Shown piece after piece: positions 27,446 to 32,249 of a DNA stretch of 34,646 bases. Both the position numbers and the translations under genes were made by a program. Source of the DNA: Candidatus Methylomirabilota bacterium (GTDB lineage: Bacteria; Methylomirabilota; Methylomirabilia; Rokubacteriales; CSP1-6); NCBI GenBank assembly GCA_035260865.1, contig DATFUK010000336.1:1-34646 (forward strand), read 5' to 3'. The stretch's first letter is position 1. Every line of letters begins with the position of its first letter. The notes under the pieces are model-generated. The model saw only the letters and a list, made by a program, of their open reading frames with translations. It was not told the origin of the DNA and made no database searches.

Positions 27446-28234
27446 TCATAGGGCCTCCGCGGCCAGGACCTCGAGGTCCTGTGCGCGCGCTTCGAACCAG
27501 GCGAGGCGCTCCCGCAGCCGTACCACCTCGCCGATGATCGCGAGCATCGGCGGCGCCAGCCGGGCCGCGCGGGCGCGGGTCACGACGGCGCGGAGCGTGG
27601 TGACCGTGACCTCCTGCGCCTCGGTCGTGCCCCAGCGGATCAGCGCCACCGGAGTGTCGGGGGAGCGGCCGTGCCCGACCAGCTCTGCGGCGATGCGCGG
27701 GAGGCTGGCGGCGCCCATCAGCACGACGAGCGTGTCCACCGCGGTGGCGAGCCGGCCCCAGTCCACATCGGGGTGATCCTTGGTCGGATCCTCGTGCCCG
27801 GTCACGACCGCGAACGAGGAGCCCAGGCCCCGGTGGGTCACCGGGATGCCGGCGTAGGCGGGCACCGCGAGCGCGGCGCTCACCCCCGGCACCACCTCGA
27901 AGGGGATGCCCGCCTCCGCCAGCGCCAAGCCCTCCTCGCCTCCGCGGCCGAACACGAAGGGATCGCCGCCCTTGAGGCGGACCACCGAGCGACCGAGGCG
28001 CGCCTGCTCGATCAGCCGCGCGTTGATCTGGTCCTGGGGCAGGCAGTGGCCCCCGGCGCGCTTGCCCGCGAAGAGGCGCAGCGCGGCGGCCGGGGCCTCG
28101 TCGAGGAGCGCGGGATTCACGAGGCGATCGTAGACGACCACGTCGGCGCGGCGCAGGATCTCGAGCCCGCGCACCGTCATGAGCCCGGGATCGCCCGGCC
28201 CGGCGCCGACCAGGTAGACGCGTCCCTCGTCCAT
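27446..28234 (-). CDS. cobA: Uroporphyrinogen-III C-methyltransferase (SUMT), 262 aa
   Basis: VYLVGAGPGDPGLMTVRG, VVRLKGGDPFVFGRGGEE and VPGVSA motifs. Its start shares 1 nt with the upstream stop. Confidence 0.9.
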   Translation of the reverse strand: MDEGRVYLVGAGPGDPGLMTVRGLEILRRADVVVYDRLVNPALLDEAPAAALRLFAGKRAGGHCLPQDQINARLIEQARLGRSVVRLKGGDPFVFGRGGEEGLALAEAGIPFEVVPGVSAALAVPAYAGIPVTHRGLGSSFAVVTGHEDPTKDHPDVDWGRLATAVDTLVVLMGAASLPRIAAELVGHGRSPDTPVALIRWGTTEAQEVTVTTLRAVVTRARAARLAPPMLAIIGEVVRLRERLAWFEARAQDLEVLAAEAL

Positions 28235-28863
28235 CAGGCCGACTCGAGATCCCGCGCGAGCCGGGCGCGCGCCTGGCGGTAGCGCTTGTCCGCGATGAGC
28301 CGGCGCAGGCCGCCGTCGAGCGCGCGCCGCCACCGGTCCGGCCCCGCGGAGACCGCCCGCCGCCGCAGGTCTTCTCGCGCCTCCGCGGCCATCTCGACCA
28401 GCGTCGCGTGGTCCTCGGTGAGATAGCCCTCCAGCTCCTCCCGGATCGCCCGCGCCGCCGCCGGGCTCGCCCCGCCGGTGGATACCGCGACCACGAGCCG
28501 CCCGCGCCGGATCACCGCGGGCAGGATGAAGTCGCAGCGCGCGGGCTCGTCGGCCGCGTTGACCCAGATCCCGCGCTCGCGCCCCTCCGCCGCGACCGCG
28601 CCGCTCACCGTGGGATCGTCGGTGGCGACGAGCGCGAGGCGGCGCCCCGCGACGTCACCGTCCTGGTACGGGCGTGGAAGATGCTCGATCCGGCCGGCCG
28701 CGACCCAGCCGGCGAGCCGCGGCGTCACGGTGGGGCTCACCACCGTGACGTTCGCGCCCGCGGCCAGCAGGCCCTCGACCTTCCCCTCGGCCACCGGACC
28801 GCCCCCCACGACGAGGACGGGGCGATCCGTGAGATCGAGGAAGACCGGGTAGTAGGCGCTCAC
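28234..28863 (-). CDS. sirC: Precorrin-2 dehydrogenase / sirohydrochlorin ferrochelatase (SirC / CysG N-domain-like)
   Basis: YPVFLDL..RPVLVVGGGPVA Rossmann start and a VSTGGASPAAARAIRE motif. Confidence 0.85.
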   Translation of the reverse strand: MSAYYPVFLDLTDRPVLVVGGGPVAEGKVEGLLAAGANVTVVSPTVTPRLAGWVAAGRIEHLPRPYQDGDVAGRRLALVATDDPTVSGAVAAEGRERGIWVNAADEPARCDFILPAVIRRGRLVVAVSTGGASPAAARAIREELEGYLTEDHATLVEMAAEAREDLRRRAVSAGPDRWRRALDGGLRRLIADKRYRQARARLARDLESA

Positions 28864-28864
28864 G

Positions 28865-29509
28865 TCAGCGCTTGGCCGGCTCGGGCTGGGGCGTGAGGCG
28901 CAGGTACGGCTTGAGCGCGCGCCAGCCCCTCGGGAACTTCGCCCGCGCCTCCTCGTCGGTGACCGCGGGCACGATGATCACGTCCTCGCCCGGCCTCCAG
29001 TTCACCGGGGTCGCGACGCGATGTCCGTCGGTGAGCTGCAGCGAATCGATCACGCGCAGGATCTCGTCGAAGTTGCGGCCGGTGGTCTGGGGATACGTGA
29101 TGAACAGGCGGATCTTCTTCTTGGGATCGATCACGAACACGGTGCGGACGGTGTAGACCTCGTCGTGGGCGGGATGGATCATGCCGTAGAGGCTGGCCAC
29201 CTTGCGGTCCGGATCGGCGATGATCGGGAAGTCCACCGCGTAGCCCTGCGTCTCCTTGATGTCGGCGAGCCAGCCCTGGTGCGACGTGACCGGATCGATC
29301 GAGAGGCCGATCGCCTTGACCCCGCGCCGCTCGAACTCGGGCCGGAGGCGCGCGACGTAGCCGAGCTCGGTCGTGCACACCGGCGTGAAGTCGCGCGGGT
29401 GGGAGAAGAGGACCGCCCAGCTGTCGCCGAGCCAGTCGTGGAAGCTGACGGGGCCGGCGGTGGTCTCGGCCTGGAAATCGGGAGCGGTGTCGCCTAGTCG
29501 CAGGGTCAT
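28865..29509 (-). CDS. 1-Cys peroxiredoxin (Prx6 type), 214 aa
   Basis: LFSHPRDFTPVCTTELG active site and a Prx6-type C-terminal extension. AAGGAGA lies 7 nt upstream of ATG 29509. Confidence 0.9.
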   Translation of the reverse strand: MTLRLGDTAPDFQAETTAGPVSFHDWLGDSWAVLFSHPRDFTPVCTTELGYVARLRPEFERRGVKAIGLSIDPVTSHQGWLADIKETQGYAVDFPIIADPDRKVASLYGMIHPAHDEVYTVRTVFVIDPKKKIRLFITYPQTTGRNFDEILRVIDSLQLTDGHRVATPVNWRPGEDVIIVPAVTDEEARAKFPRGWRALKPYLRLTPQPEPAKR

Positions 29510-29543
29510 GGTCGTGTCTCCTTGTCGGTTCGGGTTGTCGGGG

Positions 29544-31241
29544 TCAGCCTTCGAGGCCATGGGGGACGGGGCCGGGGGAGGCGTCGCGGGTCACCGCCGC
29601 GACGGGCGCGCCCGCCAGGTACGTCCGGAGCTCGTCGTCGGTGCGCGCGGCGCAGAACGCGCGGAAGCTCTCGCCCGCGTGGCGCTCGGCGAGGTAGACG
29701 CGCAGCAGGCGCTCCACCGCCTCGGGCACCGCGTGGGCGGGCACCCGGTAGCCGACGGGCCGGGCCACCGCCTGGTGGCGGCCGACCGCGCCGCCCACGC
29801 AGAAGTAGTAGGCGTCCACCAGGCGGCCGTCCATCTTGATCTTCTTGCCCTCGATACCGATGTCCGCGATCCAGTGCTGGCCGCAGCTGTTGGGGCAGCC
29901 GGTGACGTTGATGCGCACGTGCTCCTGGAAACCGGGCAGGCGGCCCTCCAGGTCCTCCACGAGCCAGCGGGCGAAGGCCTTGGTCTCGGTCAGCGCGAGC
30001 TTGCAGAACTCGCTGCCGGTGCAGGCCACCGTCCCGCGGCGGAACGGAGACGCGTCCAGCGGGAAGCCGGCGCGCTCGATCGCGCGCTCGAGCTCGGCCG
30101 CCCGGGCCCGGGGCGCGTTGACCACGATGAGGTTCTGCATCGTGGTGGTCCGGAGCTCCCCGGTGCCGAAGCGCTCCGCGAGCCCGGCGACCTCGCGCAT
30201 CTGGTCCGGGGTGAGCCGGCCCCGCAGGATCGGCAGGCCCGCGTAGACGAGCCCGGCCTGCTTCTGCGGATGGATCCCCACGTGGTCGCGATAGGCCTCC
30301 TCGGGCAGGGTCTCCGGGACCGCCGGATCGAGGGAAAAGCCCAGGCGCGCGTGGAGCGCGTTCAGGAACCGGTCCGGCGTCCAGCCGTGGTCGAGGAAGA
30401 GGAACTTGAGTCGCGCCTTCTCGCGGTTCTGGCGGAGCACGTCGCTGTCGCGGAAGATCTCGGAGACGCCCTTGACCACCGCGAGCACCTGGTCGGGCCG
30501 CACGAAGGCGTTGACCCGGAGCGCGAGATGCGGCTGGGTGGACAGCCCGCCGCCCACCCGTAGCGAGTAGCCCACGCGCCCGCTGTAGCCGTCGCGCACC
30601 GCGGTGAGACCCACGTCGTTGATCTCGGGATAGCTGCACCACACGCGGCAGCCGGTGATCGAGACCTTGTACTTGCGCGGCAGGTTGTAGAACTCGGCGC
30701 TGCCGTTCACCATCGCGGTCGCGGCCTCCACGAGCGGCGAGGCGTCCACGATCTCGTCGGCGTCGAGCCCGGCGAGCGGGCAGCCGGTGATGTTGCGCGT
30801 CACGTCGCCGCAGGTGCCCAGGCTGCTGAGCCCGCACTCGCCCAGCGCGGAGAAGATCGCGGGCAGGTCCTCGATCCGCACCCAGTGCAGCTGCACGTTC
30901 TGGCGGACGGTGAGATCGGCCACTCCGCGCGCGTGGCGCTCGGCCAGGTCGGCGAGCACGCGGAGCTGCGCGGCCGACAGGATCCCGTTGGGGATGCGGA
31001 CGCGCAGCATGAAGTAAGGCACCGCCTTCCCTTCTCCGCCCTTGCCTCCCACCGCGCCCACCCCGTCCCCCTGGGTATAGATGCCCCACCATCGGAAGTA
31101 CGTGCCGAGCCACTCCGGGGGAATCGCCTGGAAGCCTTCCCGCGCGAAGCGGACGATCTCCGCGTGCGCGGCCCACGGGTTCAGCTCCCGCTTGAGCCGC
31201 TCCACCCGCTGCGCCTTGGTCTCCTTCGCCGCCTCGTTCAC
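29544..31241 (-). CDS. Ferredoxin-dependent sulfite reductase, NirA/SirA family (siroheme-[4Fe-4S]), 565 aa
   Basis: Two nitrite/sulfite reductase repeats and the Cys cluster CTGSEFC...TGCPNSC. AGGAGG lies 7 nt upstream of GTG 31241. The sulfite versus nitrite assignment is inferred from the siroheme and Cys-leader context. Confidence 0.88.
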   Translation of the reverse strand: MNEAAKETKAQRVERLKRELNPWAAHAEIVRFAREGFQAIPPEWLGTYFRWWGIYTQGDGVGAVGGKGGEGKAVPYFMLRVRIPNGILSAAQLRVLADLAERHARGVADLTVRQNVQLHWVRIEDLPAIFSALGECGLSSLGTCGDVTRNITGCPLAGLDADEIVDASPLVEAATAMVNGSAEFYNLPRKYKVSITGCRVWCSYPEINDVGLTAVRDGYSGRVGYSLRVGGGLSTQPHLALRVNAFVRPDQVLAVVKGVSEIFRDSDVLRQNREKARLKFLFLDHGWTPDRFLNALHARLGFSLDPAVPETLPEEAYRDHVGIHPQKQAGLVYAGLPILRGRLTPDQMREVAGLAERFGTGELRTTTMQNLIVVNAPRARAAELERAIERAGFPLDASPFRRGTVACTGSEFCKLALTETKAFARWLVEDLEGRLPGFQEHVRINVTGCPNSCGQHWIADIGIEGKKIKMDGRLVDAYYFCVGGAVGRHQAVARPVGYRVPAHAVPEAVERLLRVYLAERHAGESFRAFCAARTDDELRTYLAGAPVAAVTRDASPGPVPHGLEG

Positions 31242-31254
31242 GTGCGTTCCTCCT

Positions 31255-31308
31255 GAAAACACGAAAGCCGAGTGGCGGCCGCCTCTTCACGGCCTCCACT
31301 CGGCTTTG
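31255..31308 (-). terminator. Strong intrinsic-terminator-like hairpin plus U tract in the 5' leader of the sulfite reductase gene (putative attenuator)
   Basis: The minus-strand RNA reads AAAGCCGAGUGG-A-GGCCG-UGAAGAGG-CGGCC-G-CCACUCGGCUUU, giving 12+5 bp. It is followed by CGUGUUUUC and then immediately by AGGAGG. It lies downstream of a promoter, not directly after a gene. Confidence 0.6.
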
Positions 31309-31334
31309 CGTCTCGGTGCTACGACGTTCGGCTG

Positions 31335-31415
31335 CTAGAAGGCCTGGGGTGCGCCCGGACAACAACCCGGACAACAACAGCGATGCGCACGCCTGCTGAC
31401 GACGGCCTTCTTCAT
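31335..31415 (-). CDS. Polycysteine leader peptide sORF, 26 aa: MKKAVVSRRAHRCCCPGCCPGAPQAF
   Basis: Translated by hand from the minus strand, ATG 31415 to TAG 31337-31335. It has five Cys codons, all TGT. The start lies 7 nt after a -10 box. A terminator hairpin and cysteine-biosynthesis genes lie downstream. Confidence 0.6.
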   Translation of the reverse strand: MKKAVVSRRAHRCCCPGCCPGAPQAF

Positions 31416-31422
31416 GCCGGGA

Positions 31423-31452
31423 ATACTACATAAACTTGAGCGGGATTGTCAA
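31423..31452 (-). promoter_or_regulatory. Near-consensus sigma70-type promoter: TTGACA-18 nt-TAGTAT, 7 nt upstream of the sORF ATG
   Basis: The minus strand reads TTGACA atcccgctcaagtttatg TAGTAT tcccggc ATG. The -35 overlaps the mscS stop codon. Confidence 0.55.
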
Positions 31453-32249
31453 GAACTCATAAGTACCCGAACTTCCTGCTTGGGAAGCGGCACCTGGATC
31501 CCCGCGGCCGCGAACCGATCGACCAGGGCCCGGTAGAGCTCGGCCTCGGCGGCCACGACGTCGGCCACCCGCACCCAGGGGTTGACCCCGACCCGAACGC
31601 CGGCCAGCTCGAGCTGGGCCACCCCGACCACCGGAGAAGGATCCGTCAACACCCGGGAGTTGGCGACAACCACCTCGCGCACCATGGCCAGCACCGCGGC
31701 CAGGTCCGAGCCGTGCGGCACCATCACGGCCAGGTGGATCTGGCGGGTGTTACCGAAGTTGTGGAGGATCTCCCCGACGATCTTGCGGTTGGGAATGATG
31801 ATGCGGGACCGATCGGGGTGGAGCAGGGTGGTCGAGAACAGCTCGATCGTGTGCACGTCGCCCTTCATGCCGACCACCTCGACGTGCTCGCCCACCCGGA
31901 ACGGCTTGGTGAAGATGATGGTGAGCCCCGCGATGACGTTGCCCAGCACCCCCTGGAGCGCGATGCCGATGCCGAGGCCGGCCACGCCGATGCCGGCCAC
32001 CAGCGGGGCGATCTGGAAGCCGAACTTGTCGAGCGCGATCACCAGCGCGAACAGCAGGACCACGACTCTCACGACCCGCACCATCAGCCGCCGCATCGGC
32101 GGCTCGAGCGCCATGCGGGTGAGCGGCCGCTCCACCACGTTGCCCACCCACCACGCGACGGCGAAGCCGACGCCGAGGATGACGAACGCGCCGAGGACCT
32201 GGAACCCGTAGCGGATCGCGAGATCGATGATCAGATCTTGGGCGGGCAT
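31449..32249 (-). CDS. mscS: Small-conductance mechanosensitive channel (MscS family)
   Basis: Three TM helices followed by the MscS beta-domain motif FTKPFRVGEHVEV.G..G.V..I.L..T. Confidence 0.88.
   Translation of the reverse strand: MPAQDLIIDLAIRYGFQVLGAFVILGVGFAVAWWVGNVVERPLTRMALEPPMRRLMVRVVRVVVLLFALVIALDKFGFQIAPLVAGIGVAGLGIGIALQGVLGNVIAGLTIIFTKPFRVGEHVEVVGMKGDVHTIELFSTTLLHPDRSRIIIPNRKIVGEILHNFGNTRQIHLAVMVPHGSDLAAVLAMVREVVVANSRVLTDPSPVVGVAQLELAGVRVGVNPWVRVADVVAAEAELYRALVDRFAAAGIQVPLPKQEVRVLMSS

Follow-up and report, generated by a model that had tools for sequence, protein, structure and literature searches.

Upstream of the sulfite reductase gene (sir) in Candidatus Methylomirabilota bacterium contig DATFUK010000336.1, we found a promoter, a short open reading frame (sORF) with a run of Cys codons, and a hairpin followed by a U tract. 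The analysed stretch of 34,646 nucleotides (nt), with a G+C content of 72%, is called the window throughout. Judging from the sequence of the window and its relatives, the hairpin was likely to serve as the intrinsic terminator in a transcription attenuator of the ribosome-mediated, leader-peptide kind that senses cysteine via charged tRNA-Cys, and the sir operon was probably transcribed only under cysteine shortage. A first-pass annotation had named this hairpin a candidate attenuator coupled to the Cys-rich sORF. That proposal gained support from the TGT bias of the Cys codons, from the conserved hairpin and from the finding of Trp leaders on the same scaffold. All leader features were located on the minus strand, and their positions were numbered on the forward strand of the window:

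31423..31452, minus strand: promoter, with the -35 hexamer TTGACA at 31452-31447, an 18-nt spacer and the -10 hexamer TAGTAT at 31428-31423.
31335..31415, minus strand: leader sORF of 26 codons plus TAG, encoding the peptide MKKAVVSRRAHRCCCPGCCPGAPQAF.
31359..31379, minus strand: regulatory codons, TGT x3 (31379-31371), CCG GGT, TGT x2 (31364-31359); putative ribosome stall site under Cys-tRNA scarcity.
31404..31411, minus strand: region 1, AGAAGGCC, leader nt 5-12; pairs with region 2, closing the sORF into a domain.
31337..31344, minus strand: region 2, GGCCUUCU, at leader nt 72-79 and sharing bases with the stop codon; either region 1 or region 3 can be its partner.
31308..31336, minus strand: conserved purine-rich spacer AGCAGCCGAACGUCGUAGCACCGAGACGC, containing GUC...GAC; the U tract is a possible pairing partner of its 3' end.
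31264..31307, minus strand: terminator hairpin of 17 bp with one A.G mismatch (18 positions) and an 8-nt loop.
31297-31291, minus strand: region 3, GGAGGCC, in the apical part of the terminator 5' arm.
31255..31263, minus strand: imperfect U tract CGUGUUUUC, which together with the UUU of the stem end reads UUUCGUGUUUU.
31239..31254, minus strand: sir Shine-Dalgarno sequence AGGAGG (31254-31249), 7 nt, and the start codon GTG (31241-31239).

It had been claimed that a 17-bp hairpin with a U tract lay between a promoter and the sir Shine-Dalgarno sequence, and the hairpin was indeed there, with the 5' arm AAAGCCGAGUGGAGGCCG, the loop UGAAGAGG and the 3' arm CGGCCGCCACUCGGCUUU. The 80-nt hairpin stretch folded at -44.5 kcal/mol against a shuffle mean of -25.7 (z -5.8; 0 of 200 shuffles as stable), and the core terminator stem alone contributed -35 to -39 kcal/mol. 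The U tract was also able to pair with GAGACGC upstream of the stem. The promoter placed at 31423-31452 was found as well: its TTGACA-18-TAGTAT matched 10 of the 12 consensus positions, and it was the sole promoter-like site of a consensus scan over 4 kb, where 0.2 were expected. It was kept in all window-type relatives (defined below). The upstream gene mscS ended at 31449, and its stop codon TGA was situated within the -35 hexamer. The ATG of the sORF followed the -10 hexamer by 7 nt, with no Shine-Dalgarno sequence or purine-rich stretch between them. We infer that translation of the sORF was leaderless and that transcription started at or beside the A of this ATG.

The promoter motif TTCTTGACAAT was seen again at the sir promoters of other Rokubacteria. 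An extended motif, TTCTTGACAATnnCGATCGAnAATnnGTATTTT, was common to the Rokubacteria, covering 31423-31460 of the window and occurring in 12 loci (L015, L018, L021, L025, L028, L031, L056, L067, L110, L118, L128 and L140). It was present also where the promoter directly preceded sir without any leader. The conserved spacer of this extended motif could be an operator for a transcription factor.

The sORF also stood out by its choice of codons. As the first ORF ahead of sir, it contained 5 Cys residues in 26 codons, arranged in CCC and CC runs. All five of its Cys codons were TGT, whereas the seven neighbouring genes used TGC for 20 out of 20, and TGTTGTTGT occurred only once within the whole window. 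The same bias was observed in the window-type leaders, where TGT made up 41 of 49 Cys codons as opposed to 5 of 111 in the adjacent sir genes. The genes downstream of the leader encode sulfite reductase and sirohaem synthesis, that is, the cysteine pathway of the amino acid that would be sensed. We searched the window for other poly-Cys leaders or sulfur genes and found none. The controlled operon was assigned by Pfam matches:

27446..31241, minus strand: controlled operon of four genes.
29544-31241, minus strand: ferredoxin-type sulfite reductase, sir (NIR_SIR/NIR_SIR_ferr).
28865-29560, minus strand: 1-Cys peroxiredoxin (AhpC-TSA/1-cysPrx_C).
28234-28863, minus strand: sirohaem synthase-like NAD-binding protein (NAD_binding_7/Sirohm_synth_M).
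27446-28333, minus strand: uroporphyrin-III C-methyltransferase (TP_methylase), with an uncertain start.

The upstream regions of sir were examined in all 160 fetched loci. Among species-representative genomes and metagenomes, the nearest relatives of the Sir protein came from Candidatus Rokubacteria/Methylomirabilota, followed by Acidobacteriota (Terriglobales), and these relatives aligned with the window protein from residue 1 of its GTG start. The arrangement of the window (promoter, Cys-run sORF, near-invariant spacer and terminator) was present in about 10 related Rokubacteria/Methylomirabilota sequences. This window-type set comprised L001, L002, L004, L081, L082, L085, L087 and L088, in whose orthologous sORFs the TGT run was conserved, together with a partial locus (L086) and a remnant (L084). 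The start context GGCATG was invariant, and the N-termini of the peptides varied freely (MKKATGRALEHR, MKQVMISVAQHF, MQKAGGRAHR, MKTGRASAH and others). There was always a run of 3-5 Cys codons, beginning at codon 10-13 in all window-type leaders and followed by a block that ran from GGCCTTCT to the end of the terminator. Mean pairwise nucleotide identity reached 93% in the spacer/terminator block, compared with 77% at the third codon positions of sir and 61% over the 5' portion of the sORF. Region 2 was invariant in all window-type leaders, even in those where it fell outside the sORF. In L001, L004, L085 and L087 the peptide ended at PGAA, and the nucleotide block beyond remained invariant. 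The gene upstream was pal, not mscS, in L001, L004, L084 and L087. Since the module preceded sir with either mscS or pal upstream, it belonged to sir rather than to mscS, in agreement with the earlier view that the hairpin was not simply the terminator of mscS. L084 (1380-1500) had lost its promoter along with half of the sORF, on the 5' side, and CGCTGTTGTTGTCCGGGCGCCGCCTAG alone was left directly after pal, with spacer and terminator intact.

The same conservation bears on the possibility that the sORF encoded a functional Cys-rich micropeptide, for instance a metal-binding one, and that the hairpin was simply its terminator. The CCCPG motif was conserved, and a zinc-ribbon protein was found in the same position in relatives, as such a function might have it. 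However, the length (17-26 amino acids, aa), the Cys number (3-5) and the C-terminus of the peptide all varied, and four of the sORFs stopped at PGAA while the nucleotides downstream stayed invariant. Conservation was thus at the level of nucleotides and codons, and the peptide had no family matches. We regarded a micropeptide function as highly improbable.

About 50 further Rokubacteria loci carried a homologous spacer (AAGGCGAAAGUCGAAGC..AAGACA) and terminator base (AAGCCGRG...CYCGGCUUU). The apical stems of these loci were wholly different, amounting to 50 distinct hairpins of 13-17 bp and -21 to -37 kcal/mol, and one pair of the terminator was A-U in 27 sequences and G-C in 20, a compensatory change. 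The conservation of the hairpin upstream of sir orthologs, to which the first-pass annotation had tied its proposal, was borne out: about 60 Rokubacteria loci kept the structure, with compensatory changes in its pairs. A stem rich in GC, a U tract and an A-rich complement upstream, the anatomy typical of intrinsic terminators, were conserved in about 130 of 161 loci.

The position of the window sORF was occupied in other Rokubacteria by a zinc-ribbon-like ORF with the pattern CPxC...KCxRCKAWVEVPLRYxG*, for example in the mscS-sir gap of L103 (1189-1392). Searches with tblastn found it in 53 loci, none of them window-type (examples were L003, L005-L007, L020, L083 and L103). Its last two Cys codons were TGT in 43 of 49 and 34 of 49 cases, respectively, compared with 17 of 102 for the earlier Cys codons and 34 of 448 in sir. 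This suggests that the end of the zinc-ribbon ORF may also be read as a Cys sensor. Neither the sORF peptide nor the zinc-ribbon ORF matched a Pfam family, and only generic zinc-ribbon matches below threshold were returned. In L110, L118 and L119, the zinc-ribbon ORF or a truncated form of it was followed directly by the sir Shine-Dalgarno sequence, without spacer or terminator, and the regulatory region was thus evolutionarily plastic. In L008 (2801-4300), sir formed an in-frame fusion with the ATP sulfurylase before it (domains PUA_2 and ATP-sulfurylase reading into NIR_SIR_ferr, with no stop), and there was no leader or terminator. The fusion was established for L008; the sequence upstream of sir had the same pattern in L011, L013, L036, L109, L111, L113-L117, L121, L122, L125, L136 and L139.

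The spacer between sORF and hairpin was more conserved than neutral sites. Its GUC/GAC was retained in 45 of 47 Rokubacteria leaders, and it also carried AAGGC (CAGCC in the window). We found no pairing partner or function that explained this conservation, and it was possible that the spacer was a transcription pause or a generic factor site. A small hairpin upstream of AAGGC (GCC...GGC; GGC...GCC in the window) was discarded as a candidate structure, having at most 3 bp and being inconsistent between loci. A T-box-like reading of the spacer was also set aside, as inspection revealed no specifier or T-box sequence.

Evidence for a scaffold that extends beyond cysteine came from a covariance model (CM R1) built from the spacer and terminator. 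The window element scored 82.5 bits with this model, and the window held no second copy. One extra copy outside the sir leaders was found in L007 (1412-1518; 29.8 bits, E ~9e-6), upstream of the genes identified by Pfam as trpE-trpG. The leader element here was assigned to 1362-1518, within the region 1320-1535, and a TTGACA-17-TACTGT promoter and the sORF MTRSESLWWWRRWWCPEGGRTAPA* came before the spacer and terminator. Five more Rokubacteria trpE loci (L161-L165, ~1240-1500) were fetched through TrpE homologues. All five had a promoter, an ATG located 9-10 nt past its -10 hexamer, an sORF with a Trp run and a UAG stop codon, the spacer and a terminator with the same base, AGCCGAGG...CCUCGGCU. 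The scores of the Rokubacteria trpE leaders with CM R1 were 13-34 bits. Their Trp run, WWW-RR-WW (WWWRRWW), mirrored the CCC-PG-CC of the window, and a geometry like that of regions 2 and 3 was visible, with (A/G)CCCG(C/U)G at the stop codon pairing with GCGGG in the apical arm. Thus, the window element may be seen as belonging to a lineage-specific attenuator scaffold in which the codon run sets the specificity. The trpE leaders were like the window in the TTGACA promoter, the near-leaderless start, the 3+2 regulatory codon run, the helix between the 5' end and the stop-proximal sequence, the spacer, and the AGCCGAG...CUCGGCU base. They differed from it in their Trp codons, their more variable spacer, and their apical stem and stop-proximal sequences. 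As far as we searched, these leaders appeared to be an undescribed family of trp attenuators.

These observations also bear on antitermination in trans, in which a protein or RNA would bind the purine-rich spacer (GUC...GAC, AAGGC), the sORF would be secondary, and the zinc-ribbon protein of the sister lineage could be the factor. The spacer was conserved beyond what a mere linker would need (93% identity; GUC/GAC in 45/47), no pairing partner explained it, a zinc-ribbon ORF immediately preceded the same spacer and terminator in 53 loci, and no cis antiterminator was statistically significant (see below). On the other hand, with a scaffold common to the trpE leaders it is unlikely that a protein or metabolite specific to cysteine binds the spacer, the window-type loci had no zinc-ribbon gene in the fetched sequence, and there was no support from Rfam or Pfam. 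We considered this alternative very unlikely. It is compatible with ribosome sensing, and both can coexist.

The first-pass annotation had listed three competing pairings of the leader RNA. All three were present in the window, and they fared differently. The pairing between the start and the end of the sORF (region 1:2) was part of the minimum free energy (MFE) structure and was statistically supported, while GUGCGC and GCGCAC, which flank the Cys codons, remained unpaired with each other in the MFE. In the window, region 1:2 joined AGAAGGCC and GGCCUUCU in 8 bp with -15.3 kcal/mol, and the helix belonged to the MFE of 6 out of 8 window-type leaders. Over 14 sir and trp leaders, the helix between the 5' end and the stop-proximal sequence had a mean z of -2.07 relative to shuffles, with at most 1.7% of shuffles as good in nine of them. 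Its sequence varied between leaders, as in ACGCGGUCC/GGACCGCG of L007. We regarded the region 1:2 helix as real, statistically supported and covarying between leaders.

The third pairing, region 2:3, was the candidate antiterminator. GGCCUUC (31344-31338) paired with GGAGGCC (31297-31291) in 7 bp including one G-U, as had been described, with -13 to -14 kcal/mol; the overall range of this candidate was 7-9 bp and -13 to -15 kcal/mol. Ensembles calculated for the leader before emergence of the 3' arm gave it a probability of 0.76-0.97 with a ribosome on the Cys codons; the value was 0 when the ribosome sat on the stop codon or was absent. Folding under ribosome constraints thus gave the ribosome-dependent behaviour that had been looked for, in silico and up to the point where 147 nt were available. 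Both reading-frame variants of the leader placed the stop codon at most a few bases from region 2, and in either of them a ribosome on that codon would cover region 2. When arms of the same type and of different types were compared between the sir and trp leaders, the difference was weak. RNAalifold, applied to 47 Rokubacteria leaders, returned the terminator base and the invariant 3-bp GUC/GAC pairing only and no conserved alternative fold. We considered it plausible, though tentatively so, that the modelled region 2:3 helix was the antiterminator.

These elements can be joined in the following mechanism, of which we infer the leaderless start, the stalling, the queuing and the antiterminator role of region 2:3. 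Transcription would start at or next to the ATG of the sORF, and a 70S ribosome would translate the 26-codon leader without a Shine-Dalgarno sequence. When cysteine is plentiful, the pioneer ribosome would reach the stop codon and hide region 2 (GGCCUUCU). After its release, region 1 (AGAAGGCC) would capture region 2, and the terminator 5' arm would stay free. The hairpin would then form, and most transcripts would stop short of sir, at about 31255-31262. Under cysteine scarcity, the five rare UGU codons would stall the ribosome, and a second one would queue about 10 codons behind it, on region 1 (leader nt 5-12). Region 2 would stay free and would bind GGAGGCC in the apical 5' arm, where the terminator nucleates. 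This pairing would delay the nucleation of the hairpin, and RNA polymerase would read into sir-prx-sirC-cobA. The 27-nt spacer between the sORF stop and the hairpin stem is relevant to the first of these states. A distance of 27 nt is enough in E. coli for a terminator to escape suppression by a terminating ribosome (PMC4824070). With the stop codon at least 27 nt from the stem, the hairpin can therefore form with a ribosome at the stop. Steric antitermination by the terminating ribosome was rejected, since the spacer of at least 27 nt reached or exceeded the E. coli threshold and the effect would have the wrong direction.

A number of observations weighed against the attenuator reading. The transcription start and leaderless translation were deduced from the promoter-ATG spacing, and the U tract was interrupted (UUU-CGUG-UUUU). 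Region 1 was changed without compensation in L002 and L085. Region 1 lies out of reach of a ribosome stalled on the Cys codons; the model therefore requires the queued second ribosome, and queuing is its weakest link. The region 2:3 helix was worth -13 to -15 kcal/mol compared with -35 to -44 for the terminator and covered the apical half of the 5' arm only. When the strongest duplex that the 75 nt upstream could form with the 5' arm was scored, region 2:3 was no better than shuffles (z +1.7 in the window; mean +0.16 in Rokubacteria), and in a cross-locus test a leader paired with its own 5' arm no better than with the arms of other loci (mean z +0.34). It was invariant in the 10 window-type leaders, hence there was no covariation to support it. 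The terminator won at equilibrium in every scenario once 147 nt were available, so control would have to be kinetic. Finally, most other Rokubacteria had a 62-88-aa zinc-ribbon ORF instead of a poly-Cys sORF before the same terminator, which was therefore not strictly dependent on a poly-Cys leader.

Several of these points would suit a constitutive or leaky terminator that ends the transcripts of mscS and/or the sORF with a fixed low readthrough, in which case any regulation would occur at the promoter and the Cys run would be no sensor. No antiterminator was statistically detectable in the Rokubacteria-type leaders, the hairpin was thermodynamically dominant in all modelled states, L084 retained it despite the loss of the promoter and the sORF 5' half, and the conserved motif CGATCGA in the promoter spacer could be an operator. 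However, a terminator of this kind would leave much unexplained: the exclusive use of the rare TGT, a conserved Cys run beside a variable peptide, a region 2 that stays invariant and falls at the stop codon in two different reading-frame solutions, the covariation of the region 1:2 helix, and a scaffold that recurs with Trp codons ahead of trpE. We therefore held it to be unlikely and kept the leader-peptide attenuator as our working model.

Leader-peptide attenuators are textbook systems, such as those of trp, his, leu, thr, ilv and pheA in Proteobacteria and of trp and ilvB in Actinobacteria. Like the window, they combine a short ORF rich in codons for the regulating amino acid with an intrinsic terminator before the biosynthetic genes. 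Also as we propose for the window, the position of the ribosome selects among 1:2, 2:3 and 3:4 pairings, and the terminator is thermodynamically favoured, so that control is kinetic. The window differed from these classical cases in the pairing of cysteine with sulfite reductase, in a leader that was apparently leaderless and lacked a Shine-Dalgarno sequence, and in its rare synonymous regulatory codons. Additionally, region 1 was situated at the extreme 5' end and not over the regulatory codons, and the candidate antiterminator covered the apical half of the 5' arm without statistical support.

The closest experimentally studied system is found in mycobacteria, where polycysteine leaderless sORFs have been shown to act as translational attenuators and Ms5788A frees a sequestered ribosome-binding site (Canestrari et al. 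2020, bioRxiv 10.1101/834739). Cys leader peptides without terminators had been predicted earlier in Actinobacteria (Seliverstov et al. 2005, PMC1262725). The mycobacterial sORFs resemble that of the window, for which leaderless translation is proposed, as consecutive-Cys first cistrons of cysteine-metabolism operons, in the proposed sensing of charged tRNA-Cys by stalling, and in a seemingly independent evolution at several loci. They differ from it in that the window had a strong conserved intrinsic terminator and no helix sequestering the Shine-Dalgarno sequence, belonged to a different phylum and had no sequence similarity to them. It could nevertheless be asked if the window leader worked in the same way, with stalling exposing the sir Shine-Dalgarno sequence and the hairpin being structural rather than a terminator. 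Apart from the mycobacterial precedent (bioRxiv 10.1101/834739), the CCUUCU within region 2 was complementary to AGGAGG, the Shine-Dalgarno sequence abutted the hairpin base, and it was partly paired in the predicted ensembles. However, these ensembles contained no defined helix that sequesters the sir Shine-Dalgarno sequence and no ribosome-dependent switch of its accessibility, so the window element did not fall into the mycobacterial translational class. Moreover, pairing of region 2 with the Shine-Dalgarno sequence would act in the wrong direction, and the hairpin had an intrinsic-terminator anatomy conserved in about 130/161 loci. Translational control of this type was thus very unlikely.

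Another Cys leader, uORFC-8-2, is located upstream of cysS in Rhodobacterales and has two tandem Cys codons, mostly UGC, and a terminator. It was predicted to be a ribosome-mediated Cys attenuator (Brewer et al. 2021, PMC8632094). What uORFC-8-2 and the window leader have in common is an upstream ORF bearing tandem Cys codons, together with stems and a U run at the end. On the other hand, uORFC-8-2 controls cysS rather than sulfate assimilation, is alphaproteobacterial, and is unrelated in structure and sequence. It is defined by its position at cysS and a two-stem consensus with tandem Cys codons near codons 14-15, and the window element, with sir downstream and from a different phylum, is no member of it. 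Rfam gave 0 matches at the gathering score in the whole window and 9 related loci, and in the E-value mode the leader had chance matches of the miRNA type only (E 0.15 or worse). Our literature searches turned up no account of poly-Cys leaders ahead of sulfite reductase, nor of any in Rokubacteria or Acidobacteriota. A leader-peptide switch is well known in kind; none had been reported for sir or for this bacterial group.

A second group of Cys leaders before sir was found in Acidobacteriota. In 64 of their sir loci (among L016-L080 and L106-L159), a promoter and a poly-Cys sORF were located about 60-250 nt upstream of sir, with peptides such as MS..NLRAVCCCTCCCCACVCSGAGRLLT and ..CCCTCCCCACVCSGAGRLLT. 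TGT accounted for 299 of 473 Cys codons in these leaders as against 61 of 725 in sir. The sORF was followed by a strong terminator, ACCCACCGCCAG-loop-CUGGCGGUGGGU and a U run. The 3' part of the sORF, UCUGGCGCGGGGA, was complementary to the whole terminator 5' arm (ACCCACCGCCAGA) at a constant position, and this antiterminator beat shuffles with a median z of -2.1 (63% of loci below -1.64). With such predicted pairings, the Acidobacteriota sir leader is a textbook attenuator. A search with CM R1 had no match to the Acidobacteriota sir loci, which makes their leaders a separate family in sequence, and they would represent an independent recurrence of a Cys leader before sir. This family was not in Rfam. 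In L053 (5733-5925), a second poly-Cys sORF (..MHGVCCCWCCCLAVSRAPRSRSM*) and a terminator were found between sir and a CysH-like gene with an ECGLH motif, which hints at a Cys attenuation regulon of several operons in Acidobacteriota.

For the Rokubacteria, a broader scenario can be sketched, to which as a whole we gave only a small chance. Here, the lineage would use one reusable attenuator cassette for different amino-acid pathways and change its specificity by swapping the codon run (UGG before trpE, the rare UGU before sir). The cassette would consist of a leaderless sORF closed by the helix between the 5' end and the stop-proximal sequence, the purine-rich spacer, and the AGCCGAG/CUCGGCU terminator base. 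Sensing would occur via a ribosome queue reaching back to the 5' end and not via a canonical antiterminator, and the spacer would be a generic pause or factor-binding module. The zinc-ribbon ORF of the sister lineages would be an ancestral leader with a dual function, from which the poly-Cys mini-ORF of the window was derived.

Taken as comparative sequence evidence, the element of the window is real, conserved and regulatory, and what is most worth following is its rare-codon signature and the scaffold it has in common with Trp leaders. Until now, Cys-sensing leader peptides have had experimental support in mycobacteria only, where they act on translation, and have been predicted for cysS of Rhodobacterales. 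The locus described here and its relatives would extend Cys sensing to terminator-based attenuation and to the sulfate-assimilation gene sir. They would also extend it to Rokubacteria/Methylomirabilota and Acidobacteriota, two soil phyla that are uncultivated or little studied and have almost no attenuators with an assigned function. Rare UGU codons in leaders against a UGC background are a clear and testable signature of a sensor of translation speed. The scaffold common to the Cys and Trp leaders suggests that attenuators may evolve by codon exchange on a fixed RNA chassis, and such leaders may serve as an annotation marker for cysteine-regulated operons in metagenomes.

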